DNA of 64,000 nucleotides. Source: Acidobacteriota bacterium (lineage in GTDB: Bacteria > Acidobacteriota > Polarisedimenticolia > SMYD01). The notes below the pieces were generated by a model, which worked only from the letters and a program-made list of their open reading frames with translations, searched no databases and had not been told where the DNA came from. The stretch is taken from positions 2,253-66,252 of the forward strand of contig JBHHZI010000002.1 in the NCBI GenBank assembly GCA_046757965.1, in the 5' to 3' direction. Positions 21,665 to 40,661 of the stretch are shown here, piece after piece. Within the stretch, counting starts at the first letter, position 1; every line of letters begins with the position of its first letter. A program made the position numbers and the translations under genes.

Positions 21665-21700
21665 GGTTACGGCGTTTTACCCGGTTTACAAGACTTTACA
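21665..21700. promoter_or_regulatory. Four helically phased TTAC/TTTAC direct repeats in the divergent TRAP/PQQ-cluster intergenic region.
   Basis: The sequence ggTTACggcgtTTTACccggTTTACaagacTTTACagg has 9-10-bp spacing, reminiscent of OmpR/PhoB-type direct-repeat operators. Confidence 0.3.
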
Positions 21701-21910: not shown

Positions 21911-24124
21911 ATGAAGAGAGTGTCTTGCGTGGCAACGGCAGTCCGCTGCGTTGTCGTGGCCGGTCTTCTTCTGGTGTCCGGGGCCATCACGCCCGCGTCC
22001 GACTGGCCGAACTGGAGAGGGCCGCACCTGGATGGCGTTTCTGACGAGACCGGTCTGATCTCGTCCTGGTCACCCGAGGGCGAGCATGTGCTGTGGCACG
22101 CTGATTTCGTCGGGCGTTCCACACCTGTGGTCGTCGATGGACGGGCCTGCGTCATCGGGCGCACGGGCGAGGGCATCACTCGACAGGAGATCGTCGCCTG
22201 CTACGACGCCGCGGACGGCACGCTGCTCTGGGAGTACCGGTTCGACGTCTATCACACGACGGTGCCCTTCAATCGGGTCGGCTGGGCCTCGCTGGTGGCC
22301 GACCCCGACACGGGCAATGTCTACGCCCACGGGGTGGCCGGCCAGCTCATCGCATTCGCGCCGGACGGCGCGGTGGTCTGGTCGCACTTTCTGGCCGAGG
22401 AATTCGGACATCTCTCCGGCTACGGCGGCCGGACCCAGACGCCGATCATCGTCCATGACCAGGTGCTGATCAGCTTCATCAGTGCGGGCTGGGGCGACCA
22501 GGCGGCCCCACGCCACCGGTACTTCAGCTTCGACAAGCGCACCGGCGATCTGGTCTGGTCCGCCACGCCGGGGACCATGCCCTTCGACTTCAATACCCAG
22601 TCGATGCCGGTCCTGGCGACCATCAAGGGACGGGAGATGATCGTCACCGGCAACGGCGATGGCAGGATCTACGCCCTGGATGCCGTCACCGGCGACAAGA
22701 TCTGGGAGTTTGCCCTCGGCAAGCGCGGGCTCAACAGCACGGTGCTGGTGCACGGCGACCGGGTCTATGCCGGGCACAGCGAGGAGAACATCGACGATTC
22801 CGTCATGGGCCGGCTGGTCTGCATCGATGCGACCGGCCACGGTGACGTGACGCGCAGCCACGAGGTCTGGCGCATCGACGAGCTGATGGAAGGATTTCCG
22901 TCTCCGATCTACAAGAACGGGCGCCTCTACGTCGTGGACAACTCGGCCAACCTGCACAGCATCGACGCGGCCACCGGGAAGGAGTTCTGGACCACCAGTC
23001 TGGGCACGGTGGGCAAGGGGTCGCCGGTGTGGGCCGATGGCAAGATCTACGTGACAGAGGTGAACGGCCGCTTCCACATCCTGCGGCCCGGACCCGATGG
23101 CGTCGAGAAACTCGATGACGATTTCATCGGCGTGCCCGGCGGCAGGCACGCCGAGATCTACGGATCCCCCGCCATCGCCCATGGCCGCATCTACTTCGCC
23201 ACCGAGAACGGTGTGTACTGTCTGGGCACCCAGAATCATCCCGTTGAGAACTCTCCCCGGCGCACCGCGCGCGTGGCCCGGTTTGCCGGAACCGGTGACC
23301 CGGCGGTGGTCCAGGTGGTGCCGGCCGAGATCCTGATCCATCCGGGGGAGACCATCGACCTGGGGGTTCGCGTGCTGGACAGGGCGGGCCATCCGCTGCC
23401 GGCCGGCAAGGTGAACTGGAGTCTCGACGGTGTCAAGGGGCGCGTCGGTGCCGACGGCCGGTTCACGGCCGATGCCGGCGTGAAGACCCAGACGGGAGCC
23501 GTCGCCGCCCGGGTGGGAGAGATCTCCGGCAAGAGCCGGGTCCGTGTGATCAGTCCCTTGCCCTGGCAGATCGATTTCGACACCCTGGATGTGGGAGTCA
23601 CACCGGCCACCTGGATCGGCGCGAAGGGCAAGTTCGTGGTCTTCGACCTCGACGGGAACAAGGTGCTGCGCAAGGCGCCGCGGGCTCGCGGGCTCAACCG
23701 CAGCGCTCTGTACATGGGGCCGACCGAGCTGACCGGCTACACGATCGCCGCCGATGTGAGGGGCAGCCGGCAAGGCCGGCGGTTTGCCGATGTCGGGGTC
23801 ATCAACGCCGGCTACACACTGGATCTGCAGGGGGCCCACCAGAAGATCCAGGTCCGCTCGTGGGCGTCGGTCCTGCGCATGGCGAAGGAGGTGAAGTTCT
23901 CCTGGCAACCGGACACGTGGTACCGGATGAAGCTGCGTGTCGACAGGCACGACGGCAAGGCGCTGGTGCGGGGCAAGGTCTGGCCCCGGGACGCGGCCGA
24001 GCCGGCCGAATGGACGATCTCTGTGGATGACCCGGTACCGGTGGAGAGTGGCAGTCCGGGCCTTGTGGCCTACACGCCGGTGGATGCGTACTACGACAAC
24101 ATTTCCGTGACGGTGAACCCTTGA
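21911..24124 (+). CDS. Secreted PQQ-like (BamB-type) beta-propeller repeat protein with a C-terminal Ig-like plus LamG/DUF1080-like extension.
   Basis: It has a signal peptide. The motif DWPNWRGPHLDGVS followed by repeated blades (..G.LLWEY.., ..GDLVWSA.., ..GDKIWEF..) is typical of the PQQ-like repeat family (PF13360). The C-terminal region of about 300 aa is a jellyroll-like extension. The GGAGAGG ribosome-binding site precedes ATG 21911. The listed ORF starts at GTG 21902. Confidence 0.65.
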   Translation: MKRVSCVATAVRCVVVAGLLLVSGAITPASDWPNWRGPHLDGVSDETGLISSWSPEGEHVLWHADFVGRSTPVVVDGRACVIGRTGEGITRQEIVACYDAADGTLLWEYRFDVYHTTVPFNRVGWASLVADPDTGNVYAHGVAGQLIAFAPDGAVVWSHFLAEEFGHLSGYGGRTQTPIIVHDQVLISFISAGWGDQAAPRHRYFSFDKRTGDLVWSATPGTMPFDFNTQSMPVLATIKGREMIVTGNGDGRIYALDAVTGDKIWEFALGKRGLNSTVLVHGDRVYAGHSEENIDDSVMGRLVCIDATGHGDVTRSHEVWRIDELMEGFPSPIYKNGRLYVVDNSANLHSIDAATGKEFWTTSLGTVGKGSPVWADGKIYVTEVNGRFHILRPGPDGVEKLDDDFIGVPGGRHAEIYGSPAIAHGRIYFATENGVYCLGTQNHPVENSPRRTARVARFAGTGDPAVVQVVPAEILIHPGETIDLGVRVLDRAGHPLPAGKVNWSLDGVKGRVGADGRFTADAGVKTQTGAVAARVGEISGKSRVRVISPLPWQIDFDTLDVGVTPATWIGAKGKFVVFDLDGNKVLRKAPRARGLNRSALYMGPTELTGYTIAADVRGSRQGRRFADVGVINAGYTLDLQGAHQKIQVRSWASVLRMAKEVKFSWQPDTWYRMKLRVDRHDGKALVRGKVWPRDAAEPAEWTISVDDPVPVESGSPGLVAYTPVDAYYDNISVTVNP

Positions 24125-25596
24125 AGACAACGCAGATCGCACTGGCGGCGGTGACCATCGTGATGGCGGGCGGCATCCTGGCGCCCGCGGGGCAGGCCGG
24201 AGAGACGGCCGTGATGTTCGGCAACACGCCACAGCGCAACATGGTCTCAGCGGAGACCGGTCTCCCCGATCACTGGAACGTCGAATCCGGCGCCAACATC
24301 CTGTGGTCGGCGGAACTCGGCTCCCAGACCTACGCCGGGCCGGTGGTCTCCGACGGCCGGGTCTATGTCGGGACCAACAACCAGCGGCTGTACAATCCGA
24401 AGCTGAAGGGCGATCGGGGCAACATCATCGCCTTCGATGCGGCCACCGGGAAACTCATCTGGCAGGCGGCCCATGCCAAGCTCGGGGCCGGGCGCGTCAA
24501 TGACTGGCCCCTGCAGGGCATCTGTTCCACGCCGGCGGTCGATGGCAACCGCATCTACTATGTCTCCAATCGCGCCGAGGTGGTCTGCGCCGACACCGAG
24601 GGGTTTCGCGATGGTGAGAACGACGGACCGTTCACGTCCGAGACGGCGAAGGACGACATCGATGAGGATGTTGTCTGGAAGCTGGACATGATCGGTGAGC
24701 TGGATGTCTTCCCCCACAACCTGGCCGCCGGCAGCCCGCTGATCGTCGGGGACATGCTCTACACCATCACCGGCCAGGGGGTCGACGAGGGGCACGTGAA
24801 CATCCCGTTCCCCACAGCGCCCAGTTTTCTGGCCATCAACCGGAACACCGGCAAGGTCGTGTGGGAAAGCTCCGCCCCCGGCGACGAGGTGCTGCACGGC
24901 AGCTGGTCGAACCCGTCGTATGCGGTGGTCAACGGCAAGCCCCAGGTGCTGTTTCCCGGTGGCAACGGCTGGCTGTACGCGTTCGAGCCTTCGACCGGCA
25001 AGCTCATCTGGAAGTTCGATCTCAACCCGAAGGACTCGGTCTGGGAACTGGGCGGCTCGGGCACGCGCAACAACGTCATCTCCACCGCGGTCGTCGTGGA
25101 CGGTGTGGCCTACATCGGTGTCGGTCAGGATCCGGAACATGGCGAGGCTCCGGGCAACTTCTGGGCCATCGATGCCACCCAGGAGGGCGATGTCACCGGG
25201 AAGGGGATGGTCTGGCACCGGGGCGGCGAGGACTTCCACCGGACCCTGTCGACCGCCTCGGTATCCGATGGCCTTCTCTACATCGCCGATCTGAGTGGGT
25301 TCGTCTACTGCCTGGATGCGAAGACGGGTGAGCTCTACTGGAAGTACGACGCGTTCGCCGCCATCTGGGGCTCGACGTTCGTCGCTGACGGCAAGGTCTA
25401 CATCGGGGACGAGGATGGCGACATCGCGGTCTTGAAGGCGGGCAAGAAACTCGAGCTGATCAACGAGATGAACATGGGCACGGCGGTCTACACGACGCCG
25501 GTGGCTCACGACGGTGTCCTCTACGTGGCGAGCCGCAACCGGCTGTTCGCCATTGCCGCCGGCCACGATGCAGAGAAGGGTGCCGGCGGCTCGTGA
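24121..25596 (+). CDS. Secreted PQQ-like beta-propeller repeat protein (second).
   Basis: It has a signal peptide and blade repeats (GKLIWQA, GKVVWES, GKLIWKF, GELYWKY). The TTG start overlaps the upstream stop. Confidence 0.65.
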   Translation: MKTTQIALAAVTIVMAGGILAPAGQAGETAVMFGNTPQRNMVSAETGLPDHWNVESGANILWSAELGSQTYAGPVVSDGRVYVGTNNQRLYNPKLKGDRGNIIAFDAATGKLIWQAAHAKLGAGRVNDWPLQGICSTPAVDGNRIYYVSNRAEVVCADTEGFRDGENDGPFTSETAKDDIDEDVVWKLDMIGELDVFPHNLAAGSPLIVGDMLYTITGQGVDEGHVNIPFPTAPSFLAINRNTGKVVWESSAPGDEVLHGSWSNPSYAVVNGKPQVLFPGGNGWLYAFEPSTGKLIWKFDLNPKDSVWELGGSGTRNNVISTAVVVDGVAYIGVGQDPEHGEAPGNFWAIDATQEGDVTGKGMVWHRGGEDFHRTLSTASVSDGLLYIADLSGFVYCLDAKTGELYWKYDAFAAIWGSTFVADGKVYIGDEDGDIAVLKAGKKLELINEMNMGTAVYTTPVAHDGVLYVASRNRLFAIAAGHDAEKGAGGS

Positions 25597-26711
25597 CCAT
25601 GACGCCAGACGGCGGCACACGGAACGCAGGCCGCGATTCCGGCATGGCGGCCCGGGTCGCGGAGGCGCGGGCGCGCGTCGACGCTCATGTGCGGGACATC
25701 GTGCAGTGGCATTTCGATCCGGCGACCGGCTGTCCGTTCTGGCTCGAGCGCGCGAAGAGTCTGGACTTCGATCCCCGCGAGCAGGTGAAGGGCTACGCGG
25801 ACCTCGCACTGTTCGGTCATTTTCAGGACGAATGGCTGCGCGGTGGTCCGGTGCGGCGCTGGGTCCCGCAGGGGCTGGCCGACCGTCCGGTTTACGTGTT
25901 CGAGACCGGCGGCTCCACCGGCGTGCCGAAATCACGCATCAACATCGAGGACTTCAACAGGGACTACGAGATCTTCGGCGATGCCCTCTCCGACGACGGT
26001 TTCCCGCCGGGCAGCGACTGGCTGATGCTCGGGCCCACCGGCCCCCGCCGCCTGCGGCTGGCGGTGGAGCACCTGGCCCACCACCGGGGAGGGATCTGCT
26101 TCTTCGTCGATCTCGATCCCCGCTGGGTGAGCAAGCTGGTCCGCGCCCGCCGGTTCGCGGAGATGGAGGCGTACAGGAACCACGTCATCGATCAGGCTCT
26201 CACGGTGCTCAGGGCGCACGATTCCATCCGGTGTCTGTTCACCACGCCGAAGCTGCTGTCGGCCCTGTGCGAGAAGATCTCCATCGAGAAGGCGGGTATC
26301 ACGGGTGTGTTCTGCGGCGGCACCGAGATGACCGCCCAGTTCAACCGGCTGGTGCGGGAGGAGCTGGCGCCGGGCGTCGATTTCGTGCCGACCTACGGCA
26401 ACACCCTCATGGGCCTGGCGATGCCGGGGCCGTTCGACCCCGCCGATGACTACGCCATCACCTACTACCCGCCCGTGCCACGAGCGGTGTTCGAGCTGGT
26501 CGATCCCGACAACCCGGCCGTGTCGGTCGACTACGGGGAGACGGGCCGCGTGATGCTGACGACCTTGACCCGCGAGTTCTTCATGCCGCGCTTTCTCGAG
26601 CGGGATGAGGGGGTCCGTGCCCGCCCGTGCGAGAGATTCCCGTGGGACGGGGTCACCAATCTCGGCCTCCTGTCGTCCCTGCAGGCGTCGGTGGCGGTCG
26701 GGGTGTACTGA
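25593..26711 (+). CDS. LuxE-like acyl-protein synthetase / adenylate-forming enzyme (PaaK-like fold).
   Basis: The 372-aa length is LuxE-like. A P-loop FETGGSTGVPK is present. A Cys near the C-terminus (RPCERFPW) sits where LuxE carries its acylated Cys. The gene is coupled to a LuxC-like reductase gene. Confidence 0.5.
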   Translation: MTMTPDGGTRNAGRDSGMAARVAEARARVDAHVRDIVQWHFDPATGCPFWLERAKSLDFDPREQVKGYADLALFGHFQDEWLRGGPVRRWVPQGLADRPVYVFETGGSTGVPKSRINIEDFNRDYEIFGDALSDDGFPPGSDWLMLGPTGPRRLRLAVEHLAHHRGGICFFVDLDPRWVSKLVRARRFAEMEAYRNHVIDQALTVLRAHDSIRCLFTTPKLLSALCEKISIEKAGITGVFCGGTEMTAQFNRLVREELAPGVDFVPTYGNTLMGLAMPGPFDPADDYAITYYPPVPRAVFELVDPDNPAVSVDYGETGRVMLTTLTREFFMPRFLERDEGVRARPCERFPWDGVTNLGLLSSLQASVAVGVY

Positions 26712-28162
26712 TGCTCCACCTGCCGGTGCTGCGGGCCGGCCGCCCATACCGCAGTCTTGACACCATCACCCTGACGGACGTGCGCAGCGGGGAGCCGGTC
26801 GCCACGGTCAGCCAGGCCGGCGCCGCCATGATCGCCCATGACATGGCGGGCGGACACGCACGGCGCCGTCGGCTCCAGGAGATCGGCAGCGCCGCCCGGC
26901 TGGACATCTGCAGGAAAGCCGCGGGCCTGTTCATCGGCGAGTCTCTGCCCGCCGGCGACCGTGTCCAGTCTCCCGCAGACTACGTCGCCTGCCTGTCGGC
27001 AACCACCGGCATGCCGGAGGCGCTGTGCCGGGCCAACATGAAGAAGATCCATTTCGTCCTGGACCGCATGGATGTGGTGCTGGCCGGCCTGACCCGCGGT
27101 CTGGATCTGGACATCGTCGATGCCGGGCACGGCGTGATGGCCGGCCGGCCGGTCGCATACGTCTGTGAGGCGGACCGCCTCGGGGCCGTCCTGCCGAGCA
27201 ACTCGCCCGGGGTGCATTCTCTCTGGATCCCGGCCGTCGCGCTGGGCGTGCCGGTCGTCCTGCGCCCGGGGAGTCGCGAACCCTGGACACCCGTTCGCAT
27301 TGCACAGGCGCTGATCGCTGCGGGGCTGCCCCCGGAGGCCATCAGCTTCTACCCCGGCGGCCATGACGGCGCCACCGAGATCGTGCTGAGAAGTGAGCGG
27401 TCCATGGTCTTCGGGGACGAATCGACGGTTCTTCCGTGGGTCTCGGATCCGCGCGTACAGATTCACGGGCCCGGCTGGAGCAAGGTCCTCCTCGCCGATG
27501 CCGCCGCCTCCTCCTCGCGCGACCATCTCGACCTGATGGTCACCAGCATCGCCGCCAACGGGGGTCGCTCGTGCATCAACGCCTCCGGCGTCTGGACGAC
27601 CTCCGGAGGGGAGGCTCTGGCCGACGCCCTGGCCGGGCGATTGGCCAGGATGAGCGCCCGACCGCTCGACGATCCCGAGGCGAGCCTGGCCGCGTTCTCC
27701 GACCCGGACGTGGCGTCACGCATCGATCAGTTCATCGAGCAGCGCCTGGCGGTGCCGGGGGCCCGGGACATCACGGCGGAGGTGCGCGGCACACCGCGCC
27801 GGGCCCGGGTCGACGGGTGCACGTTCCTGCTGCCGACGATCATTCACGTCACCGAGCCGGATCACCCGCTGGCGGCGGCGGAGTTCCTGTTCCCGTTCGC
27901 GGCGGTGGTGGAGCGACCCCGGGAGTCGATGCTGAGCGCCCTCGGGCCCACCCTGGTCTGCACGGCGATCACGGGCGACCCAGCTCTTGCGCGCGAGCTG
28001 ATGGACTGCGGCTCGATCGAGCGTCTCAACCTGGGGCCGATCCCGACGACCCAGGTGTCGTGGGACCAGCCTCACGAGGGCAACCTGTTCGAGCATCTGT
28101 TCCGGCAGCGGGCGTTCTGCGCGGCGAGAAACGGGCGGCCGGCGGGGACCGGGGCGGCCTGA
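26711..28162 (+). CDS. LuxC-like acyl-CoA reductase (ALDH superfamily, aldehyde-forming).
   Basis: The ATG overlaps the upstream TGA. It has an ALDH-type catalytic Cys context (IAANGGRSCINASGVWT). Its length (about 483 aa) and position after the LuxE-like gene match the luxC/luxE pairing. Confidence 0.55.
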   Translation: MLHLPVLRAGRPYRSLDTITLTDVRSGEPVATVSQAGAAMIAHDMAGGHARRRRLQEIGSAARLDICRKAAGLFIGESLPAGDRVQSPADYVACLSATTGMPEALCRANMKKIHFVLDRMDVVLAGLTRGLDLDIVDAGHGVMAGRPVAYVCEADRLGAVLPSNSPGVHSLWIPAVALGVPVVLRPGSREPWTPVRIAQALIAAGLPPEAISFYPGGHDGATEIVLRSERSMVFGDESTVLPWVSDPRVQIHGPGWSKVLLADAAASSSRDHLDLMVTSIAANGGRSCINASGVWTTSGGEALADALAGRLARMSARPLDDPEASLAAFSDPDVASRIDQFIEQRLAVPGARDITAEVRGTPRRARVDGCTFLLPTIIHVTEPDHPLAAAEFLFPFAAVVERPRESMLSALGPTLVCTAITGDPALARELMDCGSIERLNLGPIPTTQVSWDQPHEGNLFEHLFRQRAFCAARNGRPAGTGAA

Positions 28163-28163
28163 C

Positions 28164-29360
28164 ATGGGCCATGATCCTCGCCTACCGGTCGTGTCCCGAC
28201 CGGGGCCGGATGGAATCTTTCCGGTGCCGGCCGGCGTCTCCTGGGAGGCCCATGTCGGTCCGACGCGCGTCCTGGCCGGATGTGGTGCCCTCGAGCGGCT
28301 GGGGAGTCTGGCGCGGGATCTCGGGGGCAAGCGCGTCCTCGTGGTGACCGATGCCGGTCTGCGGCGGGCCGGACACGTGGAGCGCGGCGTGGCGTCGCTG
28401 AGGGCGGCCCGGGTCACGCCCGTGGTGTTCGATGGGGTGCAGGAGAACCCGACCTCGACGCAGGTGGACGCCGGCACGGCGTTCGCGCGCGATCACGACA
28501 TCGATCTGATCGTCGGGCTCGGAGGCGGCAGTTCGATGGACACGGCCAAGGGCATCAACTTCATCCTCACCAACGGCGGCACCATGGCCGACTACCGGGG
28601 ACGCGGAAAGGCGAGCCAGGCCATGCTCGGCTCCATCGGTGTGCCGACCACTGCCGGCACGGGAAGCGATGCCCAGTCGTATGCGCTGATCTCTGATCCG
28701 GTGACCCGTGTGAAGATGGCGTGCGGGGATCCCAAGGCCCGCTTCACGGCGGTGATTCTCGATCCGGCGCTCTCGCTCACCCAGCCGGAGCACACCACGG
28801 CGGTCACGGCCCTGGATGCCATCGGCCACGCCGTGGAGACGTTCGTGACCAGGAGTCGAACTCCCGTGTCGAGTCTCTACGCGCGGGAATCCTGGCGTCT
28901 GCTGTCGAGCCACCTGCCGCGGGTGCTCGCCACCCCTGCCGATCTCGACGCCCGTGCGGCCATGTTGTGGGGTGCCCACCTGGCCGGGGCCGCCATCGAG
29001 GCCTCAATGCTCGGCGCCGCGCACGCCTGCGCCAACCCGCTGACCTCCCGGTGCCGGCTGGAGCACGGCGTGGCCGTGGCCCTGATGCTGCCGCACGTCG
29101 TCTCGTTCAACCGGCCGGCCGTTGGCGCCGAGTACGGCGAATTGATGTCGATCATCGGTGCGGTCGGAGACGACTTGGCGGAGCGCATCGTGCTCCTGCG
29201 CGGCGCGGCAGGCCTGCCGGGTCGGCTGCGAGATTGCGGGGTGACCGAGGCGGACCTGCAGCCGATGGCCGGCGAGGCGGCCGCGCAATGGACGGGTCAG
29301 CACAACCCGGTGGAATTGACCGTGGACGCGGCGCGGAAGCTCTATGACGCCGCGTACTGA
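28164..29360 (+). CDS. Iron-containing (group III) alcohol dehydrogenase.
   Basis: Motifs include GKRVLVVTDAGL, the Gly-rich LIVGLGGGSSMDTAKG, and His-rich metal-site regions (LDAIGHAVE, AHACANPL). Confidence 0.75.
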   Translation: MGHDPRLPVVSRPGPDGIFPVPAGVSWEAHVGPTRVLAGCGALERLGSLARDLGGKRVLVVTDAGLRRAGHVERGVASLRAARVTPVVFDGVQENPTSTQVDAGTAFARDHDIDLIVGLGGGSSMDTAKGINFILTNGGTMADYRGRGKASQAMLGSIGVPTTAGTGSDAQSYALISDPVTRVKMACGDPKARFTAVILDPALSLTQPEHTTAVTALDAIGHAVETFVTRSRTPVSSLYARESWRLLSSHLPRVLATPADLDARAAMLWGAHLAGAAIEASMLGAAHACANPLTSRCRLEHGVAVALMLPHVVSFNRPAVGAEYGELMSIIGAVGDDLAERIVLLRGAAGLPGRLRDCGVTEADLQPMAGEAAAQWTGQHNPVELTVDAARKLYDAAY

Positions 29361-31847: not shown

Positions 31848-31865
31848 GACGGGAGAGCCAGACTC

Positions 31866-33125: not shown

Positions 33126-33349
33126 ACCGCCCGGTCCGGCTGCTGCTGGTCGTGGCGGCGGCGACGTTGTACGTGCTGCACAACGATGTCTGGCTGTGGA
33201 ACGACAGCCGCCGTGTCCTCGGGTTGCCCGCCAGCCTGGCGTATCACGTGGCGTACTGCCTGGCCGCGGCCGTGCTGATGGGGCTCTTCGTGGGCTTCGC
33301 CTGGCCCCATGAGGGGGATGACGACGCCGTCGAGGGTCCTCCCCGGTGA
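33122..33349 (+). CDS. Small membrane protein (DUF3311-like, typical partner of sodium:solute symporters).
   Basis: It is about 75 aa with two hydrophobic helices (LLLVVAAATLYVL, AYCLAAAVLMGLFVGF). It lies immediately 5' of the symporter gene with a 4-bp overlap. The GTG start is inferred. Confidence 0.35.
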   Translation: MNRPVRLLLVVAAATLYVLHNDVWLWNDSRRVLGLPASLAYHVAYCLAAAVLMGLFVGFAWPHEGDDDAVEGPPR

Positions 33350-34809
33350 CCCTGGCGGTCATCCTGATCTATCTCGCCGCCGTGCTGCTCGTCGGAGTGC
33401 TGGGCCACCGGCTGTTTCGCGGCACCGGCGAGGATTACTTCCTCGCCACCCGCACCATCGGACCGTTCGTCCTGCTGATGTCGCTGTTCGGCACCCACAT
33501 GACGGCGTTCTCCCTCCTGGGGGCGTCGGGAGAGGCGTATCATGAGGGCGTCGGTGTGTTCGGCCTGATGGCCAGCTCATCGGCCCTGGTGGTGCCGCTG
33601 GTGTTCCTCGGCGTGGGAACGCGCCTGTACCGGTGCGGCAAGCGACTCGGTCATGTCACCCAGGTGCAGTACTTCAGGGAGCGCTGGGAATCCGACGGGC
33701 TGGGACTCCTGCTGTTCATCGTCACGGTGGCGCTGGTCATCCCGTACCTGCTCATCGGTGTGATGGGCGGTGGGATCGCCCTGAACCAGATCACCGGCGG
33801 TGATGTGCCGGAGTGGGTGGGCGGGCTGATGATCTGCGGCGTGGTGCTGGGCTATGTGACCACCGGCGGTCTGCGCAGCACCGCCTGGGCCAACACCTTC
33901 CAGACCCTGGTGTTCATGATCCTCGGGGGAGTGGCCTTCGCGGTGGTCGTGCACGATCTCGGCGGGCTGGACGCCGCGCTGGATCGTGTGGCGGCCGTCT
34001 CGCCGTCTCTTCTCGTGCCCGGGCAGGCCATGCCGCTGGGCCGGATGGTCTCCTACACGCTCATCCCCCTGTCCGTCGGCATGTTTCCCCACATCTTCAT
34101 GCACTGGCTGACCGCCCGCCGTGTCGAGACGTTCCGGCTCACCGTCATCCTCTATCCGCTCTGCGTCGCGGTGGTGTGGCTGCCCAGCGTGCTGATGGGG
34201 CTGTTCGGCGCGGTGGAGTTCCCGGGGCTGGCGGGGCCTGCCGCCAACGCCGTGCTCGTCAAGCTGATTCACGCCCATGCGCCCGATCTGCTCGCCGGCC
34301 TGCTGGGCGCCGGGGTCTTCGCCGCCGTGATGTCGTCGCTGGATTCCCAGACGCTTTCCCTGGGCACCATGTTCGCCCGCGACATCGTCCTGCACCACGG
34401 CTTTCAGGACCACCTGAGCGAGCGGTATCAGGTCATTCTCGGGCGCCTGTTCGTGTCCGGTGTGCTGCTGGTCACCTTCCTGCTGTCGCTGGTGGCCGAC
34501 CGCAGCATCTTCCGCCTGGGTATCTGGTCGTTCACCGGCTTCGCCGCACTCTTCCCGCTGGTCGTCGCGGCGCTGTTCTGGCGACGCAGCACCGCGGCCG
34601 GAGCCATCGCCGCGGTGCTGACCATGGCCGTCCTGTGGGTCCGGGCCTTCGTGCGCAGCGGCGGCGGCGCCTCCTCCGGCCCGGGAGGGCTGATGCCGGT
34701 GGCCTCGATCCTGGCGGCCTCCGCCGCGGCGCTGGTGGTGGTGTCCCTCGTGACCCGGCCGCCCTCGCCCGCAGCCCTGGCGCGTTTCTTCCCCGAGGGC
34801 GACGGATGA
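33346..34809 (+). CDS. Sodium:solute symporter family (SSS) transporter.
   Basis: The 487-aa ORF has about 13 transmembrane helices. Its N-terminus (YFLATRTIGPFVLLMSLFGTHMTAFSLLGASGEAY) is typical of SSS/PutP/ActP-like transporters. Confidence 0.8.
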   Translation: MTLAVILIYLAAVLLVGVLGHRLFRGTGEDYFLATRTIGPFVLLMSLFGTHMTAFSLLGASGEAYHEGVGVFGLMASSSALVVPLVFLGVGTRLYRCGKRLGHVTQVQYFRERWESDGLGLLLFIVTVALVIPYLLIGVMGGGIALNQITGGDVPEWVGGLMICGVVLGYVTTGGLRSTAWANTFQTLVFMILGGVAFAVVVHDLGGLDAALDRVAAVSPSLLVPGQAMPLGRMVSYTLIPLSVGMFPHIFMHWLTARRVETFRLTVILYPLCVAVVWLPSVLMGLFGAVEFPGLAGPAANAVLVKLIHAHAPDLLAGLLGAGVFAAVMSSLDSQTLSLGTMFARDIVLHHGFQDHLSERYQVILGRLFVSGVLLVTFLLSLVADRSIFRLGIWSFTGFAALFPLVVAALFWRRSTAAGAIAAVLTMAVLWVRAFVRSGGGASSGPGGLMPVASILAASAAALVVVSLVTRPPSPAALARFFPEGDG

Positions 34810-36134
34810 GCCTGTCGCCCGGCCGTGCCCTGCGCATCGCCCACATCACGCCCGGTGCGGGCGGCATGGTCTGCGGGAGCTGTCTGCACGACAACACACT
34901 CGCGGCTGCCCTCGAGAGGGAGGGCCACCAGGTGGCCCTGGTGCCGATCTACACGCCGCTGCGCACCGACGAGGAGGACGTGAGTCTTTCCCGTGTGTTC
35001 TATGGCGCGGTCAATATCTATCTCCAGCAGCACAGCCGGCTGTTCCGCCACACCCCGTGGATGCTCGACCGCCTCCTGGATCGTCCGGGGTTGTTGGCGT
35101 GGGTCGGACGGCGGGCGGGGAGCGTGGACGCGCGCCAGCTCGGCGCCCTCACACGCTCGATGCTCGAGGGCGAGGAAGGCCACCAGGCGAAGGAACTCGA
35201 GAAACTCGTGCACTGGCTGGGGACCGGGTTCCGTCCCGACATCGTGCACCTGTCCAACTCGTTGCTGCTGGGACTGGCCCGTCGACTCCGGGAGGCGACC
35301 GGGGCGCCGGTCGTCTGCTCGGTGCAGGGAGAAGACCTGTTTGTCGATGAATTGCCGGCAGCCGACCGGACGGCGGTGACCGAACTGCTCTGCCGGCGTG
35401 CCCGGGACGTGGACGCGTTCATCGCTCCCGGTGAGGCGGTGGCCCGCCGGATGGGCGCGCGCCTGGGCGTGGAGGCGGAGCGGATGCATCGCGTCCCGCT
35501 GGGTATTCGACTCGACGGCCACGTCGGAACGCCGCGCGCCGTGGCGGTCGGAGCGCCGTTCACCATCGGCTACATGGCCCGCATCTGTCCCGAGAAGGGG
35601 TTGCACCTGCTGGTCGACGCCTTCCGGCGGCTGGCCGACCGCGGCGGCGAGCGGCGCATCCGCCTCGAGGTTGCCGGCAGCATCGGGCCTCGTGACGCGG
35701 CCTATCTCGAGGGCATCCGGCGGCAACTGGATGGGTGGCAGCTCGCCTCGTCGGTGGTCGTGCACGGTGAGGTGGACCGCGCGGCCAAGCTCGCGCTCCT
35801 GGCGCGCGCGGACGTGGTCTCGGTGCCGGCGACCTATCCGGAGGCGAAGGGGCTGTACGTGCTCGAGGCGCTGGCCAGCGGCACGCCGGTGGTGCAGCCG
35901 GAGGCGGGCGCCTTCCCGGAAATCCTCGCCGGAACCGGCGGTGGAATCCTGTACGATGCGGACCGGCCCGGCGCGCTGGCGCAGGCCCTGGAGAAGATGA
36001 TGACCGATGACGCCGAGAGGCTGGCGCTGGCCCGGGCCGGGCACGCGGCGGTGGTGGCCCGGTTCAGCGATACGACCATGGCGCGAACCACCGTGGCGGT
36101 CTACGAGCAGATCCTGAAAGGATACGGCCGATGA
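34806..36134 (+). CDS. Family 4 glycosyltransferase (GT-B fold).
   Basis: The C-terminal GT4 signature is present (ARADVVSVPATYPEAKGLYVLEALASGTPVV), along with EX7E-like motifs. The ATG overlaps the symporter stop. Confidence 0.75.
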   Translation: MSLSPGRALRIAHITPGAGGMVCGSCLHDNTLAAALEREGHQVALVPIYTPLRTDEEDVSLSRVFYGAVNIYLQQHSRLFRHTPWMLDRLLDRPGLLAWVGRRAGSVDARQLGALTRSMLEGEEGHQAKELEKLVHWLGTGFRPDIVHLSNSLLLGLARRLREATGAPVVCSVQGEDLFVDELPAADRTAVTELLCRRARDVDAFIAPGEAVARRMGARLGVEAERMHRVPLGIRLDGHVGTPRAVAVGAPFTIGYMARICPEKGLHLLVDAFRRLADRGGERRIRLEVAGSIGPRDAAYLEGIRRQLDGWQLASSVVVHGEVDRAAKLALLARADVVSVPATYPEAKGLYVLEALASGTPVVQPEAGAFPEILAGTGGGILYDADRPGALAQALEKMMTDDAERLALARAGHAAVVARFSDTTMARTTVAVYEQILKGYGR

Positions 36135-36571
36135 AGTCGAGCGTCCCGTTCGTGGCCCGTCGCACCGTGGAGTTCTCCGATTCGGACATGGGTGGCGTGG
36201 TGCATTTCTCCCGTTACCTGGTGTACATGGAGACGGCGGAGCACCAGTTCCTGAGGTCCCGGGGCATCGAGGTGCATGCCGAGTTCGAGGGCCGGTTGCT
36301 GAGCTGGCCGCGCGTGGCGATCCGCTGCGAATACCGGCAGGCCGCGCGGTTTCGCGATGCCATCGACATCGAGGTGCGCGTTCTGCGCCGGGGAACACGG
36401 TCGGTGACCTACGGGTTCCGGCTGCGCCGGGCCGATGAGGACCTGGCGACCGGTGAGATGACCGCGGTCTGCTGCGTCGTGGATCCGGGCACGGGAACGT
36501 TGCAGTCGGTGGAGATTCCTGCCGCCATCGCTGCGGCCATCGGTGAGGGCGAGCGAGACGGAACGAGCTGA
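36131..36571 (+). CDS. Hotdog-fold acyl-CoA thioesterase (YbgC/FadM / 4HBT family).
   Basis: The 146-aa length and the motif DSDMGGVVHFSRYLVYMETAEHQFL (catalytic Asp near the N-terminus) fit 4HBT-type thioesterases. Confidence 0.65.
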   Translation: MKSSVPFVARRTVEFSDSDMGGVVHFSRYLVYMETAEHQFLRSRGIEVHAEFEGRLLSWPRVAIRCEYRQAARFRDAIDIEVRVLRRGTRSVTYGFRLRRADEDLATGEMTAVCCVVDPGTGTLQSVEIPAAIAAAIGEGERDGTS

Positions 36572-36624
36572 CGGCGCGGTCGGCGACGCCACGAGGACGT
36601 CGTCAGCGATGAGGACGGAGGGCG

Positions 36625-37323
36625 ATGATGACGGAGGCAGGCCACGACGCGGTGCTCAGGGTCGAAGAGGTCACCCGCAGCTACCCGGCCGGACGCACGA
36701 CACTGGAGGTGCTGCGTGGCGTGACGTTCACCATGGGTGCCGCCTCGGCGCTGGCCATCACCGGCCCGTCCGGATCGGGCAAGAGCACGCTGCTTCATCT
36801 CATCGGTGGTCTCGACCGGCCGACGTCGGGCCGCATCGAATACGATGGCACCTCGCCTCAGGACCTTCCCGAACCGCAGCTCGCGGCATTCCGCAACCGC
36901 CGGGTCGGGTTCGTCTTCCAGGACCATCATCTGCTGCCGCAGTACTCGGTGCTCGAGAACGTCCTGCTGCCGACGCGGGCGCTGGGTGGCGGCGGTGGCC
37001 CGGAATCGGTGGCCCGTGCCCGGCACCTGCTCGAGCGCGTCGGACTGGACCGGCGTCTGACCCATCACCCGGATGAACTGTCCGGCGGTGAGCGGCAACG
37101 CACGGCGGTGGCGCGGGCGCTGATCAATCGCCCCGGCATGCTGCTGTGCGACGAGCCGACCGGCAGCCTCGACCGCGCATCGGCCAAGGCCGTGGCCGGG
37201 CTCCTCTTCGATCTCCACGCCGCGGAGCAGAATCTGCTCATCATCGTGACCCACAATCTCGATCTGGCCCGCAGATTCGACCGGCGTCTCGAGCTAGTGG
37301 ATGGCCGATGCTCCGCAGTCTGA
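36625..37323 (+). CDS. ABC transporter ATP-binding protein (MacB/LolD type).
   Basis: Walker A is GPSGSGKST, the signature is LSGGERQR, and Walker B is LLCDEPTGSLD. Confidence 0.85.
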   Translation: MMTEAGHDAVLRVEEVTRSYPAGRTTLEVLRGVTFTMGAASALAITGPSGSGKSTLLHLIGGLDRPTSGRIEYDGTSPQDLPEPQLAAFRNRRVGFVFQDHHLLPQYSVLENVLLPTRALGGGGGPESVARARHLLERVGLDRRLTHHPDELSGGERQRTAVARALINRPGMLLCDEPTGSLDRASAKAVAGLLFDLHAAEQNLLIIVTHNLDLARRFDRRLELVDGRCSAV

Positions 37324-40300
37324 TCCACCATCGCCGTGTGAGCACCGCGGTGGTGCTGGCGGGAGCAGTCGCGACCGCGGTGTTGACCGGTGCGCTGCTG
37401 GTCGGTGATTCGGTGCGCGGGAGCCTGGCGGACCTGACCCGGGAGCGCCTCGGACGGATCGACGAGGTCCTCGTCGGCCCCCGCTTCTTCCGGGAACATC
37501 TCGCCGACGAGCTGACGGCACCGCCGGATCGGGTGTGCGAGACGGTGGTGCCCGCCATCTTCATGACGGGGAGCGCCGTGCACGGTACGACCGGCGCGCG
37601 AACCTCGGGTGTCTCGGTGCGCGGTGTCGATGGCCGGTTCCTCGACCTGCTGGACTGGCCGGACGGCGGCGTGCCGGACCTCGCGACAGCAGAGGGGGCG
37701 TCGTTTCCGCCCGTGGTGGTGAACGAGTCGCTGGCGCGCGACCTCGATGCCCACCCGGGTGACCCGATTCTCCTGTCGTTTCCGCGGGCCTCGGACGTGC
37801 CGAGGGACACGGTCCTGGGGGAGAAGGATCCGGCGAGCGTGGTCAAGCGCTTGCGGCTGACGGTGGTGGGCGTCGTCTCAGACCGGGGCGGGGGTCGCTT
37901 CGGACTGGCGGCCAACCAGGTGGCGCCGCGCAATGCCTTCGTGCCCCTGAGCCGCCTGCAGCGGACGCTGGATCTGGCGGGGCGGGCGAACGTGCTGCTG
38001 GCGGCGTGCGCGGAGGCGTCCCCGACGGAAGAGCTGGACCGGAGCGTCGGCGCGGTCCTGTCTCTGGCGGACCTCGGGTTGAGTGTGACGGACGCGGGCG
38101 ACCGCCTGGACCTGCAGAGCCGGCGTCTCGTTCTGGCGCCGTCCACCGTCAAGGTCATCGATGAGGTGGCGGCGGCGGAGGGTCTTCCCGTGCGACACGT
38201 GGTGACCTACCTGGCCAACCGCATCGAGGTGGGCCGTCGCGCCGTGCCGTACTCGACGGTGAGCGGACTGGATCTCGGTCCGGCGCCGCCGTTCGAGACG
38301 CTGCGCCCCATTGCGGGCCATCTCGACGGCGGACTCGGGGACCGTGAGATCGTGCTGAACGAGTGGGCGGCGACCGACCTTTCGGCCTCTCCCGGGGATG
38401 AGGTGCGACTGACCTACTTCGCCGTCGGCCCGCACGAGGAACTGCGCACGGCATCGGCGTCGTTCACGCTGCGGGCGGTGGTGGCCATGGAGGGGCTCGG
38501 TGCCGATGCCGGTCTCACCCCGGACTATCCCGGCATCCAGGATGCCGGCGACATGGCCGGCTGGAACCCGCCGTTTCCGGTGGACCTGAGCCAGGTGCGT
38601 CCGGAGGATGAGGCGTACTGGGACCGCTGGCGGGCCGTGCCGAAGGCCTTCGTGTCGCTGGCCACCGGCTCGGCACTGTGGGGCACGCGTCACGGCGCGG
38701 TGACGTCGGTGCGTGTGGCGGCGAGCACGGCCGCGGCCCGGAACGGTTTCCTGGAAGACGTGCGCACGAGGTTGCTGTCGGCGGCGCACCCGTTTCGATT
38801 CCAGCCGGTGAAGACCGCGGGGTTGAGCGCGGCGTCCGGGGCGACCGATTTCAGCATGCTGTTCGTCAGCTTCAGTTTCTTCCTCATCCTGGCGGCGGCG
38901 ATGCTGGTGACCCTGCTGTTCGGCCTGGGTGTCGAGCAGCGGGCCCGGGAGATCGGGTTGCGCCGGGCGATCGGCACGCCGATGGCCCGCGTCCGCAACC
39001 AGCTCCTCGGTGAGGGACTGCTGCTGGCGGTGGTGGGCGGGGGTCTCGGCGTGGCGGGTGGCTGGGCCTACGGCTGGCTGATGATGACCGGGCTACGCAC
39101 GGTCTGGGTCGGCGCCGTGGGCACGCCCGTCCTCTTCCTCCACGTGACCGCGACGAGCCTGCTCGGCGGCTGGATCGGTTCGGTCCTGGTGGTGGAGATC
39201 GCCGTCGGCCTGGCCGTGCGCCGCCTCCGCAAGGTGGCGCCCACCGCCCTGCTGGCCGGCGCCGGCAGCCTGGTCCGCCGGGCGCCGGCGGGGCGGGTGA
39301 CGACCGCTCTGGCGCTCGGTGGCTGGCTGACCGGAGCTGGACTGCTGGCCACCATGATCCTCACCGGCGCGGGGGAGTCTCCCGGGCTGGCCTTCGGCGT
39401 GGGCGGGGCGCTGCTGGTGGGTTGCCTGGCCACGTTTGCACGCTGGTGCCGCCGCCGGCCGCCTTCGACCCTGGCGCGGGCACCGGGGCCCATCGCGATG
39501 GCAGCGCGCAACAGCGCCGAGAACCCGGGACGCAGTCTGCTCTCGATGGCGCTGGTGGCGTCGACGAGCTTCATCATCATCCTGGTCGCCGCCAATCGCC
39601 ACGAGTTCGGCGACGAGGAGACCGATCGCCGGTCGGGAACCGGCGGTTTTGCGCTGCTGGCCGAGGCGACGGTTCCCGTGGTGGCGGACCTCTCTTCGGA
39701 GACGGGACGCGCGGCAGTGGGGTTGAGCGCCGATGCCTCCCTGGGACCCGATGTCGAGATCTTTCCGCTGCGCCTGCTGCCGGGCAATGACGCCAGTTGC
39801 CTGAATCTCTACCGGCCGTCGGCGCCGCGGGTGCTGGGAGTGCCGCCGGAGTTCGTCGCGCGGGGCGGTTTCACCTTCCAGGCCCATGCCGCCGGCCCGA
39901 CCGCCGGGTGGAATGTTCTGACGTCTTCATTCGATGATGGCGCCATCCCGGCCATCGCCGACGCCAAGTCCGCCCAGTGGCTCTGGAAGCTCGGTCTCGG
40001 GGACGATGTCATCCTCCCGGACGAGGCCGGCCGCCTTCTTCATCTGCGCCTGGTCGGCCTGTTGCAGGCCAGCATCTTCCAGAGCGAGATCCTCATCCCG
40101 GAGGCGGCGTTTCTGGAGCATTTCCCGGGGCGCGCGGGTTATTCGGTGTTTGCCGTGGATGCCCCGGCCGCGCGCTCGGCGAGCGTGGGCCTGGCCCTGG
40201 AGCGTGGGCTGGCGCCGTTCGGCGTCGATGCGGTCTCCACCCGGGAGCGGCTGGCCCGCTTCCAGGCGGTGGAGAACACCTATCTCTCCACCTTCCAGAT

Positions 40301-40661
40301 GCTCGGCGGGCTCGGGCTCCTGCTGGGGACGGTGGGCCTGGGCCTGGTGCTCCTGCGCAACGTGAGCGAGCGACGGGGCGAGCTGGCGACGCTACGGGCC
40401 TGCGGGTTCGCACGTCGCCGGCTCACCTGGATGATTGCCGCCGAGACCGGCTTCCTGCTGGCGACCGGGCTGGCGGCCGGCAGCATCGCCGCGCTCGCCT
40501 CGGCCGTGCCCCGACTGGTGACAGGCTCGCTGCACCTGCCGTGGGCCTTCCTCGGGGGCACGCTGGCGATTGTCCTGGTCACCGGCATGCTCTCCTGCGT
40601 GGCGGCGGTGGCCGGCGCCCTTCGACAGCCGCTCCTGCCGTCGCTCAAGGCGGAACGGTAG
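37308..40661 (+). CDS. Large FtsX/MacB-type ABC transporter permease (two FtsX 4-transmembrane modules with large periplasmic domains).
   Basis: The start MLRSLIHH overlaps the ATPase gene. There are two sets of four transmembrane helices (around residues 560-700 and 1000-1117) separated by large extracytoplasmic domains. Confidence 0.7.
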   Translation: MLRSLIHHRRVSTAVVLAGAVATAVLTGALLVGDSVRGSLADLTRERLGRIDEVLVGPRFFREHLADELTAPPDRVCETVVPAIFMTGSAVHGTTGARTSGVSVRGVDGRFLDLLDWPDGGVPDLATAEGASFPPVVVNESLARDLDAHPGDPILLSFPRASDVPRDTVLGEKDPASVVKRLRLTVVGVVSDRGGGRFGLAANQVAPRNAFVPLSRLQRTLDLAGRANVLLAACAEASPTEELDRSVGAVLSLADLGLSVTDAGDRLDLQSRRLVLAPSTVKVIDEVAAAEGLPVRHVVTYLANRIEVGRRAVPYSTVSGLDLGPAPPFETLRPIAGHLDGGLGDREIVLNEWAATDLSASPGDEVRLTYFAVGPHEELRTASASFTLRAVVAMEGLGADAGLTPDYPGIQDAGDMAGWNPPFPVDLSQVRPEDEAYWDRWRAVPKAFVSLATGSALWGTRHGAVTSVRVAASTAAARNGFLEDVRTRLLSAAHPFRFQPVKTAGLSAASGATDFSMLFVSFSFFLILAAAMLVTLLFGLGVEQRAREIGLRRAIGTPMARVRNQLLGEGLLLAVVGGGLGVAGGWAYGWLMMTGLRTVWVGAVGTPVLFLHVTATSLLGGWIGSVLVVEIAVGLAVRRLRKVAPTALLAGAGSLVRRAPAGRVTTALALGGWLTGAGLLATMILTGAGESPGLAFGVGGALLVGCLATFARWCRRRPPSTLARAPGPIAMAARNSAENPGRSLLSMALVASTSFIIILVAANRHEFGDEETDRRSGTGGFALLAEATVPVVADLSSETGRAAVGLSADASLGPDVEIFPLRLLPGNDASCLNLYRPSAPRVLGVPPEFVARGGFTFQAHAAGPTAGWNVLTSSFDDGAIPAIADAKSAQWLWKLGLGDDVILPDEAGRLLHLRLVGLLQASIFQSEILIPEAAFLEHFPGRAGYSVFAVDAPAARSASVGLALERGLAPFGVDAVSTRERLARFQAVENTYLSTFQMLGGLGLLLGTVGLGLVLLRNVSERRGELATLRACGFARRRLTWMIAAETGFLLATGLAAGSIAALASAVPRLVTGSLHLPWAFLGGTLAIVLVTGMLSCVAAVAGALRQPLLPSLKAER

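Follow-up and report, generated by a model that had tools for sequence, protein, structure and literature searches.

The 64,000-nucleotide stretch of DNA analysed here (positions 2,253 to 66,252 of contig JBHHZI010000002.1, assembly GCA_046757965.1; hereafter the window) belongs to an Acidobacteriota bacterium of the Polarisedimenticolia and carries 14 consecutive plus-strand genes between positions 21911 and 40661, designated g1 to g14 in their order. We believe that this block most likely makes and traffics a small halogenated aromatic metabolite and represents an ancient operon that has spread over several phyla, a reading to which we assign a probability of about 0.4. The most likely product would be a halogenated, methylated and sugar-tagged aromatic alcohol or aldehyde that is handled in the cell envelope. 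The operon is strongly conserved, has been noticed previously just tangentially, and is a tailoring-rich small-molecule cluster with dedicated envelope trafficking.

The layout of the block was established from the listed open reading frames, their GC content at third positions and a table of the gene junctions, and its gene content was assigned with Pfam and NCBIfam models. Ten of the 13 junctions are overlaps (seven of 4 bp, and one each of 1, 17 and 16 bp) and the other three are gaps of 1, 18 and 53 bp. Since the largest intergenic gap is 53 bp, a gene for a carrier protein or a precursor peptide cannot hide within the block. Minus-strand genes border it on each side (20570-21577 and 40694-41269), and the ATG of g1 at 21911 is preceded by a GGAGAGG-type ribosome-binding site, an alternative open GTG being present at 21902. 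This agrees with a preliminary description of the same DNA, which had listed 14 plus-strand genes with ten overlapping junctions and whose gene starts were reproduced in every case; of the one or two polycistronic units that it proposed, the conservation of the block across phyla supports one conserved unit. Promoter and terminator scans inside the block yielded sites no more numerous than in shuffled sequences and were therefore uninformative. Upstream of g1 we found neither a riboswitch or leader RNA (no Rfam match at the gathering threshold or at E≤1) nor a Fur box (best match 8/19, not above the background). Given a gene order that recurs across phyla, the block is, on the genomic evidence, a genuine 14-gene operon, far beyond what chance would produce.

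The recurrence of the block was studied by a genome scan with the alignment of g8, which found 460 relatives among the GTDB species representatives. The best 80 loci were examined, the genes of the window were mapped onto related loci by tblastn, and 83 related loci served as the basis for the counts of recurrent gene families. The best 80 loci were from Acidobacteriota (Polarisedimenticolia, Thermoanaerobaculia and strain Mor1), Latescibacterota, Poribacteria, KSB1 and Gemmatimonadota, and in most of them, from Acidobacteriota, Latescibacterota, KSB1 and Gemmatimonadota, the gene order recurred through g14. Among the Acidobacteriota, g11, g13 and g14 were present in 25 of 25 loci, g10 in 24/25, g12 in 20/25 and g5 to g7 in 24 of 24, while in Latescibacterota g11 and g13 were found in 18 of 19 loci and g12 and g14 in 17. 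Judging by this synteny, the glycosyltransferase (g11), thioesterase (g12) and ATP-binding cassette (ABC; g13 and g14) genes belong to the conserved unit. The pair g9 and g10 was present in 20/25 Acidobacteriota loci versus 3/19 in Latescibacterota. Orthologues of g3 were 69-78% identical across phyla, and those of g2, which ranks second in conservation among the proteins of the block, 65-72%; the corresponding figures for g1 and g10 were 51-69% and 58-71%. A metagenome protein collection contained more than 8000 relatives of g3, the top 120 of which showed 71-78% identity, and three long metagenome contigs keep the order g1 to g10. The gene set is thus kept as a block in related genomes of several phyla, which was the conservation check that the preliminary description had suggested. 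In one carrier, L001 (positions 11101-14976 of an 897-kb contig), several short called genes take the place of intact g4, g5 and g6 orthologues, probably through frameshift errors of long-read assembly and not as real pseudogenes. In Poribacteria the g8 homologue lies mostly in other contexts, and we did not count these genomes as carriers of the block. As a separate observation, locus L064 (844-9745) has a lone halogenase homologue directly downstream of a set resembling type II secretion systems (T2SS) or pili (T2SS J and K, a PilM-like protein and a secretin), and many Poribacteria are alike in this.

The chemistry that we propose begins with a carboxylate-reductase module encoded by g3, g4 and g5. 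The 372-aa product of g3 (25593..26711, plus strand, as are all genes of the block) is an EhpF-type ANL adenylating enzyme without the C-terminal domain: its residues 31-360 match the EhpF structures 3l2k/3hgu over their full length (chain residues 22-353, E 8e-44), it has the ANL P-loop TGGSTGVPK at residues 105-113, and, running co-linear to the 366-aa EhpF, it ends after 372 residues and has no C-terminal ANL domain (about 120 aa). The AMP-binding match of g3 scored 22.6 bits, under the cutoff of 29.9; PF00501 is recorded for most g3 orthologues, and no NCBIfam model covers the family. We predict that g3 activates a carboxylate by adenylation. Overlapping it by 1 nt, g4 (26711..28162, 483 aa) encodes an EhpG-type protein of the aldehyde dehydrogenase (ALDH) family (Pfam Aldedh, PF00171, 46.3 bits against a cutoff of 23). 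In the alignment, the catalytic Cys (NQGEVC) corresponds to Cys288 of g4 (in GGRSC) and the oxyanion Asn (PWNFP of KauB) to Asn164 (in PSNSP), and the conservation of both over 27 aligned orthologues was taken from the conservation line of the alignment alone. The general-base Glu that hydrolytic ALDHs have in their ELGGKS motif is missing from g4, which has His252 there (in IHGPGWS), and this replacement fits a non-hydrolytic, thioester-reducing enzyme. The predicted reaction of g4 is the reduction of an acyl-adenylate or acyl-enzyme to the aldehyde. The next gene, g5 (28164..29360, 398 aa), encodes an iron-containing alcohol dehydrogenase (Pfam Fe-ADH 159.8 bits, ADH_Fe_C 112.5 bits) that missed all NCBIfam equivalog cutoffs and is predicted to convert the aldehyde to the alcohol or the alcohol to the aldehyde. 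Taken together, g3 and g4 look like a two-protein carboxylate-to-aldehyde reductase with an Fe-ADH next to it, a chemistry that is well supported. The carboxylate to aldehyde to alcohol module outlined in the preliminary description is therefore present, but with EhpF/EhpG-type proteins instead of the LuxE and LuxC that had been proposed for the products at 25593 and 26711: g3 gave no match to LuxE (PF04443) at E≤0.01 or at E≤1, and g4 none to LuxC (PF05893) at E≤1. Of the families named there for these two genes, only ALDH was matched, by g4 and through PF00171 alone.

The resemblance of g3/g4 to EhpF/EhpG of the D-alanylgriseoluteic acid system of Pantoea agglomerans extends to their arrangement, since in both cases an ANL adenylase of about 360 aa without the C-terminal domain is followed by an ALDH-family partner. 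An adjacent AMP-binding/ALDH pair of this type is also found in a Proteus phenazine cluster. The EhpF/EhpG pair was reportedly proposed by Bera and coworkers in 2010 to turn phenazine-1,6-dicarboxylate into the 6-formyl compound via an adenylate. However, the block carries no phenazine core genes, its context is one of propellers, halogenase, radical S-adenosylmethionine (SAM) enzyme and type VII ABC transporter, and g3 is just about 37% identical to plasmid-borne homologues. On a plasmid of Streptomyces sp. ADI95-16 (L085, 8926-15011), an EhpF-like and an ALDH-like gene overlap by 1 nt, as g3 and g4 do, directly upstream of the genes for 3-deoxy-D-arabino-heptulosonate 7-phosphate (DAHP) synthase and aminodeoxychorismate synthase (PabB), a further aromatic-acid setting for this kind of reductase pair. 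With the ALDH partner of the plasmid pair, g4 shares 31% identity (E 1e-38). Other Streptomyces homologues of g3 bear the RefSeq name 'arylcarboxylate reductase', for which we found no curated hidden Markov model or paper.

The second element of the proposed pathway is g8 (31866..33125, 419 aa; Trp_halogenase 92.9 bits), a flavin-dependent halogenase of the PltA/Mpy16/Bmp2/CndH/CmlS type. It matched 8zop, PltA (5dbj) and Mpy16 (5buk) in the PDB over the full length (E 1e-52 to 1e-55) and aligned end to end with PltA, Mpy16, Bmp2, CndH and CmlS (E 1e-44 to 1e-55). The GxGxxG motif is present as GGGPAG at residue 11 and WxWxIP as WFWYIP at 217-222, K72 aligns with the catalytic Lys of PltA, and all three are invariant in four orthologues, so that g8 bears, by sequence, all the accepted marks of a flavin-dependent halogenase. 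Enzymes of this class attack activated, electron-rich aromatic, enol or alkyne carbons and not saturated chains, and those of the PltA type usually act on substrates bound to a carrier protein. The bmp pathway, which combines the chorismate lyase Bmp6 with brominases, is echoed in two variant loci described below. What sets the block apart from the PltA and bmp systems is the absence of a carrier protein, a proline adenylase, an acyl-CoA dehydrogenase-like oxidase and a cytochrome P450 (P450), and the identity of g8 to the solved halogenases is low.

Three further enzymes accompany the halogenase. The product of g7 (30516..31847, 443 aa) is a HemN-like radical SAM enzyme of the class C type (Radical_SAM 69.6 bits) with a HemN_C match of 25.1 bits against a cutoff of 24 and the CxxxCxxC cluster motif as CRKRCKFC at residues 63-70. 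Its best NCBIfam matches were the STM4012 family, ChuW/HutW and HemN, each below the cutoff; for the four equivalogs tested (HemN, HemW, ChuW/HutW and STM4012), the scores against cutoffs were, from the highest to the lowest, 183/380, 170/400, 169/325 and 148/205. The others are a glycosyltransferase family 4 (GT4) enzyme encoded by g11 (34806..36134, 442 aa; Glycos_transf_1 81.7 bits, Glyco_transf_4 56.5 bits) and a hotdog-fold 4HBT thioesterase, YbgC/FadM-like, encoded by g12 (36131..36571, 146 aa; 4HBT_2 50.6 bits, 4HBT 41.6 bits). Pfam matches thus recovered the HemN-like radical SAM, flavin-halogenase-like, GT4 and hotdog thioesterase enzymes of the preliminary description. That a flavoprotein and a radical SAM enzyme share one operon with an ABC transporter and with propellers of the periplasm, and that g8 has sub-threshold matches to the maturases QhpG, LodB and GoxB, would also be expected if the block matured a protein-derived cofactor in the periplasmic propellers, in the manner of quinohemoprotein amine dehydrogenase or LodA/GoxA, with the flavoprotein and radical SAM enzyme modifying a residue and the ABC transporter exporting the subunit. 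We consider this very improbable. The scores of g8 to true halogenases are far higher and are accompanied by WxWxIP and the catalytic Lys, g7 is HemN-like and not of the SPASM type, a small-subunit gene and a peptidase are both missing, and g3 to g5, the GT4 and the thioesterase would be left unexplained. Moreover, transport of folded subunits through the inner membrane is not known for MacB-type systems.

As to the substrate, we infer an aromatic acid in preference to a fatty acyl chain because of the halogenase type of g8, the EhpF homology of g3 and the class C type of the radical SAM enzyme g7, and also because a chorismate pyruvate-lyase occurs in two variant loci and Streptomyces homologues of g3 carry the name 'arylcarboxylate reductase'. 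This lyase (Rv2949c/UbiC-like, PF01947) lies by the halogenase in L054 (5786-6418, Poribacteria) and L083 (8050-8613, Latescibacterota), a neighbourhood that hints at 4-hydroxybenzoate as precursor and would lend sparse, independent support to a hydroxybenzoate-type acid. The L054 variant consists of an orthologue of g7 (27-1295, 60-73% identical to those of other loci), a second HemN-like gene that is a paralogue (6499-7821), LDL-B/PQQ/Kelch propellers, the halogenase, a transporter pair of the TAXI-TRAP type considered below and the chorismate pyruvate-lyase. The fatty-acyl substrate assumed in the preliminary description found no such backing: nothing links the substrate to fatty acids, and the halogenase type, the EhpF homology and the chorismate-pathway neighbours favour an aromatic acid.

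The lipid explanation nevertheless has to be weighed in its complete form, namely that the block modifies an envelope lipid, with g12 freeing a fatty acid, g3 to g5 reducing it via the fatty aldehyde to a fatty alcohol, the radical SAM enzyme and halogenase tailoring it, the GT4 making a glycolipid and the MacB-like transporter extracting it from the inner membrane, in the way that DevBCA treats heterocyst glycolipids and LolCDE lipoproteins. The nearest relatives of g12 are YbgC/FadM acyl-CoA thioesterases and those of g13 are LolD, YbbA and DevA; the relatives of the GT4 include glycolipid synthases, and lipidic molecules drawn out of the membrane are the typical cargo of type VII ABC transporters. 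The logic of proceeding from carboxylate via aldehyde to alcohol is shared with LuxC/LuxD/LuxE, in which the carboxylate is activated with ATP, transferred to a Cys of the reductase and reduced with NADPH to the aldehyde, a thioesterase supplying the acid. However, the block has no luciferase genes, the LuxE and LuxC models are not matched, and aromatic acids are the substrates of those relatives closest to g3 that are characterised or annotated. Furthermore, a saturated chain would not offer the activated carbons that flavin halogenases need, the block contains no fatty-acid synthase, polyketide synthase, desaturase or acyltransferase, and the variant loci hold a chorismate lyase rather than lipid genes. 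For a group of sponge clusters termed Halo_AMP, matches to the exporter cassette of the bartoloside glycolipids have been reported (Loureiro et al., bioRxiv 10.64898/2026.08.03.742642), and this speaks for a lipid. On balance we regard a lipid product as unlikely.

The envelope part of the block comprises three secreted propellers, a symporter pair and an ABC machine. The first gene, g1 (21911..24124, 737 aa; PQQ_2 111 bits), encodes an 8-bladed PQQ_2/BamB-like propeller followed by an immunoglobulin (Ig)-like and a concanavalin A (ConA)-like lectin-fold domain. An AlphaFold2 model built with 36 sequences (mean predicted local distance difference test, pLDDT, 87.6) displayed a signal helix at 7-22, the 8-bladed propeller, the Ig-like domain and a C-terminal all-beta domain, and the fold search with this model gave BamB and tetrathionate hydrolase as the closest PDB folds of the propeller. 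The tail, modelled with a pLDDT of 92.3, matched lectins and ConA-like glucanases in Foldseek (E 1e-6 to 1e-4), among them legume lectins, the lectin domain of galactocerebrosidase, GH16 glycanases and Emp47p. According to the model it has a ConA-like lectin/glucanase fold, a superfamily that includes LamG and DUF1080, without membership of either family being implied: Pfam DUF1080 was unmatched at E≤1, just weak Ig matches were found, and a PDB profile search was empty. Consequently, the DUF1080/LamG-like tail announced beforehand stands at the level of the fold but not as a DUF1080 domain. A periplasmic carbohydrate-binding module on g1 would fit a glycosylated product. The second propeller, g2 (24121..25596, 491 aa; PQQ_2 104.6 bits), is also secreted, and the third, g6 (29344..30519, 391 aa; PQQ_2 152.8 bits, Beta-prop_ACSF4 188.5 bits), is an 8-bladed BamB-like protein, secreted and possibly lipidated, with LLAC|G at its N-terminus. 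By inspection, g1, g2 and g6 all have signal-peptide-like N-termini, and with their PQQ_2 matches the three secreted PQQ-like propellers of the earlier account are confirmed. They do not qualify as pyrroloquinoline quinone (PQQ) dehydrogenases (PQQ_enz_alc_DH 47-80 against a cutoff of 480) or as BamB (TIGR03300 54-184 against 285.2, with g6 the highest at 183.7), and sequence searches retrieved generic BamB, 'Cake' designed-propeller and PQQ-repeat matches and nothing more specific.

The ABC machine is encoded by the last two genes. The product of g13 (36625..37323, 232 aa; ABC_tran 120.5 bits) is an ATPase of the LolD/MacB/FtsE type with LolD, YbbA and MacB as best NCBIfam matches (LolD TIGR02211, 244.5 against a cutoff of 307.75), and that of g14 (37308..40661, 1117 aa; FtsX 87.4 bits in two stretches, MacB_PCD 57.4 bits) is a duplicated FtsX permease, YbbP/ADOP-like, with 10 predicted transmembrane (TM) segments and two extracytoplasmic domains at about 33-523 (some 490 aa) and 763-997 (some 235 aa). 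With an FtsX-fold permease, a periplasmic core domain and a MacB/LolD-type ATPase, g13/g14 are by their domain content a MacB-family (type VII) ABC transporter, which corresponds to the MacB/FtsX-type exporter with giant periplasmic domains anticipated in the preliminary description. They share the LolD/MacB-like ATPase and the FtsX-fold permease with a MacB-type periplasmic core domain with MacAB-TolC, LolCDE, DevBCA, PvdRT-OpmQ and YbbAP, and the duplicated 10-TM layout of g14 resembles YbbP and ADOP proteins. In contrast to the MacB-family systems, the extracytoplasmic domains of g14 are at least twice the size of those of MacB, and the BamB-like propeller partners that we propose have no precedent. 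Neither a membrane-fusion protein nor a TolC-like partner was found among the 14 genes or among the gene families that recur in the 83 related loci. That BamB, LolD and YbgC are the best NCBIfam matches of g6, g13 and g12, respectively, could be taken to mean that these genes are housekeeping paralogues for outer-membrane biogenesis (BamB, LolCDE, YbgC) that merely lie beside unrelated metabolic genes. The three scores are, however, all under the equivalog cutoffs, and the genes are interleaved, translationally coupled and co-inherited with the metabolic ones across phyla, which makes such an arrangement extremely improbable.

Import functions are associated with the block in three forms. Within it, g9 (33122..33349, 75 aa; DUF3311 35 bits, GTG start at 33122) encodes a small membrane protein, the partner of the sodium:solute symporter (SSS) encoded by g10 (33346..34809, 487 aa; SSF 144.3 bits, 12 predicted TM), which is PanF/PutP/MctP-like. 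Outside it and in divergent orientation, the minus strand carries genes for a TAXI-type tripartite ATP-independent periplasmic (TRAP) transporter, namely the solute-binding protein (NMT1_3; 20570..21577, Pfam NMT1_3 219.6 bits) and a fused DctQM-type membrane component (18576..20570, Pfam DctM 248 bits). Orthologues of the binding protein (63-69% identity) adjoin the cluster in 12 other loci, ten from Latescibacterota and two from Poribacteria, and DctQM orthologues (59-62%) lie directly after the halogenase gene in the Poribacteria loci L054 and L075. Because these orthologues, at 59-69% identity, adjoin the cluster in two other phyla, the TAXI-TRAP pair at 18576-21577 is probably an accessory member of the system. 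The third form is a TonB-dependent receptor found between g7 and g8 in 22 of 24 Acidobacteriota and 15 of 19 Latescibacterota relatives; receptors located in the operon (for example L003 14203-16341 and L049 7685-9868) scored 252.8 and 236.1 with the siderophore-receptor model TIGR01783, against a cutoff of 223.5. The receptor is not in the 64-kb window and is likewise missing in L006 and L007. Most relatives also add a fourth propeller and a small membrane protein of 185 aa, both of which are absent from the window. The 185-aa protein has about 5 TM and no Pfam or NCBIfam match, is 63-74% identical across phyla (L003 3674-4228, L002 5617-6174 and some 30 further loci) and has no fixed place in the cluster, being located upstream of g1, between g11 and g12 or downstream of g14; a role as flippase or permease subunit is conceivable. 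With their siderophore-type receptor, MacB-type transporter and periplasmic proteins, most of the related loci resemble siderophore systems such as pyoverdine with its periplasmic maturation. However, there are no genes for nonribosomal peptide synthetases (NRPS) or NRPS-independent siderophore synthetases (NIS), no Fur box, no receptor in the window and no evident chelating chemistry.

The same importers suggest a different role, in which an exogenous aromatic acid, perhaps halogenated or metal-bound, is taken up and converted without de novo synthesis. The TonB receptor, the periplasmic propellers as binding proteins, the SSS symporter and the TAXI-TRAP system would bring it in, the enzymes would transform or detoxify it and the ABC transporter would expel it. 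Such a role is in line with the three importer types, with the lack of an encoded scaffold synthase and with the origin of the carriers in sponges, sediments and soils, habitats rich in aromatic acids, and TRAP and SSS transporters commonly carry carboxylates. On the other hand, ATP-dependent carboxylate reduction, glycosylation and halogenation are anabolic or tailoring reactions and not catabolic ones, ring-cleavage and beta-oxidation genes are absent from the block, the copy in the window has no TonB-dependent receptor, and we know of no WxWxIP halogenase that acts as a dehalogenase. We therefore think it quite unlikely that the block serves uptake and conversion.

On the basis of these data we propose the following order of events for the synthesis and trafficking of a halogenated aromatic metabolite. 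The starting compound, an aryl carboxylic acid and plausibly one of hydroxybenzoate type, would derive from chorismate or be imported via the SSS/DUF3311 pair and the TAXI-TRAP transporter, and the hotdog thioesterase g12 may release it from a CoA ester. Adenylation of the acid by g3 would be followed by acceptance of the acyl group on the Cys of g4 and NAD(P)H reduction to the aldehyde, which g5 could carry on to the benzylic alcohol. The electron-rich ring would be halogenated by g8, C-methylated or otherwise alkylated by g7, and provided with a sugar by g11. The type VII ABC machine g13/g14 would then handle the product or a precursor in the envelope, where the huge periplasmic domains of g14 probably cooperate with the secreted propellers g1, g2 and g6, and the lectin-fold module of g1 could bind the glycoside. 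Finally, in most genomes, this one excepted, the siderophore-type TonB receptor would recapture the compound or its metal complex. The substrate class, the succession of the steps and the contact between propellers and ABC transporter are what we infer, and a service as metallophore or signal would be a further conjecture; the enzyme identities, motifs, synteny and distribution are those observed. A more specific version, in which a halogenated aromatic glycoside synthesised in the cytoplasm is shuttled by three to five BamB-like periplasmic propellers and a giant double-FtsX type VII ABC motor, with recapture by TonB receptors in most lineages, appears doubtful to us.

Several observations weigh against the synthesis of a halogenated aromatic compound. 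The block has no gene for the carrier protein or the flavin reductase of a PltA-type halogenase such as g8; the window encodes no scaffold-forming enzyme, and just two of the 83 loci contain the chorismate lyase. Lipid chemistry would likewise accommodate the thioesterase, the LolD/DevA-like ATPase and the GT4, and the three importers (TonB receptor in the relatives, SSS and TRAP) could equally mean uptake of a foreign compound. As for the propellers, the function that we ascribe to them is conjecture, and the folds that they match are generic BamB-like ones. Moreover, the conservation across phyla (about 75% for g3 and about 70% for g2) is unusually high for a secondary-metabolite cluster and looks more like that of core physiology. 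Identities of about 70-75% between phyla in the core enzymes imply strong selection on the function and do not suggest a sporadic antibiotic cluster.

Full-text literature searches found no characterised system of this gene composition, in agreement with the preliminary description, whose author knew of none. The nearest mention concerns the 'Halo_AMP' pseudoclass of sponge microbiomes, a group of clusters that have a flavin halogenase and an AMP-binding enzyme, frequently contain PQQ-like domains, radical SAM enzymes, glycosyltransferases, thioesterases and ABC and TonB transporters, come from Acidobacteriota, Latescibacterota and Poribacteria, and have no product assigned (Loureiro et al., bioRxiv 10.64898/2026.08.03.742642). 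Halo_AMP is an ad hoc antiSMASH search rule, and the text of the preprint centres on a P450-containing family, CC A, which is a different cluster from the block; it leaves the EhpF/EhpG-type reductase, the type VII ABC part and the non-sponge occurrence undescribed (bioRxiv 10.64898/2026.08.03.742642). As regards the rule itself (Trp_halogenase plus AMP-binding in one neighbourhood), the Trp_halogenase match of g8 is clear, and the AMP-binding match of g3 is under the Pfam cutoff although a PF00501 entry exists for most g3 orthologues.

The carriers (Polarisedimenticolia, Thermoanaerobaculia, Latescibacterota, KSB1 and Poribacteria-related variants) are abundant in soils, sediments and marine sponges, and their lineages have hardly been cultured. 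The operon would be a defined route to halogenated metabolites in these phyla and thus bear on the question of who makes the brominated compounds of sponges. The two-protein EhpF/EhpG carboxylate reductases, little studied so far and interesting for biocatalysis, would gain a second biological context. The very common 'PQQ-like' propellers of the BamB type in the periplasm and the giant duplicated FtsX permeases, an expanded group in Acidobacteria, might receive a first functional role. Were the propeller-ABC shuttle true, it would amount to a new shuttle for a metallophore, a cofactor or a signal with a new propeller-ABC architecture, and flavin-halogenase chemistry in Acidobacteriota, Latescibacterota and sponge symbionts would come mainly from it.

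The 330-bp divergent intergenic region between the TRAP genes and g1 contains three phased TTTAC direct repeats (TTTAC-N4-TTTAC-N5-TTTAC, 21676..21699, plus strand) with a spacing of 9-10 bp. The pattern TTTAC-N4-6-TTTAC had no other match in the 64-kb window, and none was expected from 100 shuffles. It was also present 60-140 bp upstream of g1 in L001 (6075-6090), L002 (6186-6200, in the opposite orientation) and L003 (4248-4262), so that support for the motif is limited to four Acidobacteriota-type loci. Matches in Latescibacterota loci fell within coding sequence (the plug of the TonB receptor and the start of g4) and were discarded as coincidental. The repeats are a candidate operator or promoter element, and their arrangement looks like the site of a winged-helix response regulator.

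Directly downstream of the block, the minus strand (40694-45530) encodes a PAS histidine kinase and two response regulators, of which one is HD-GYP-like (HD_5), and these genes are not conserved beside the cluster in other loci. Further on, at 48816-53350, a glyoxylate-shunt pair (malate synthase and isocitrate lyase) lies beside a divergent ScfR-type regulator with helix-turn-helix and M78 peptidase-like parts, an ordinary arrangement that is unrelated to the block.

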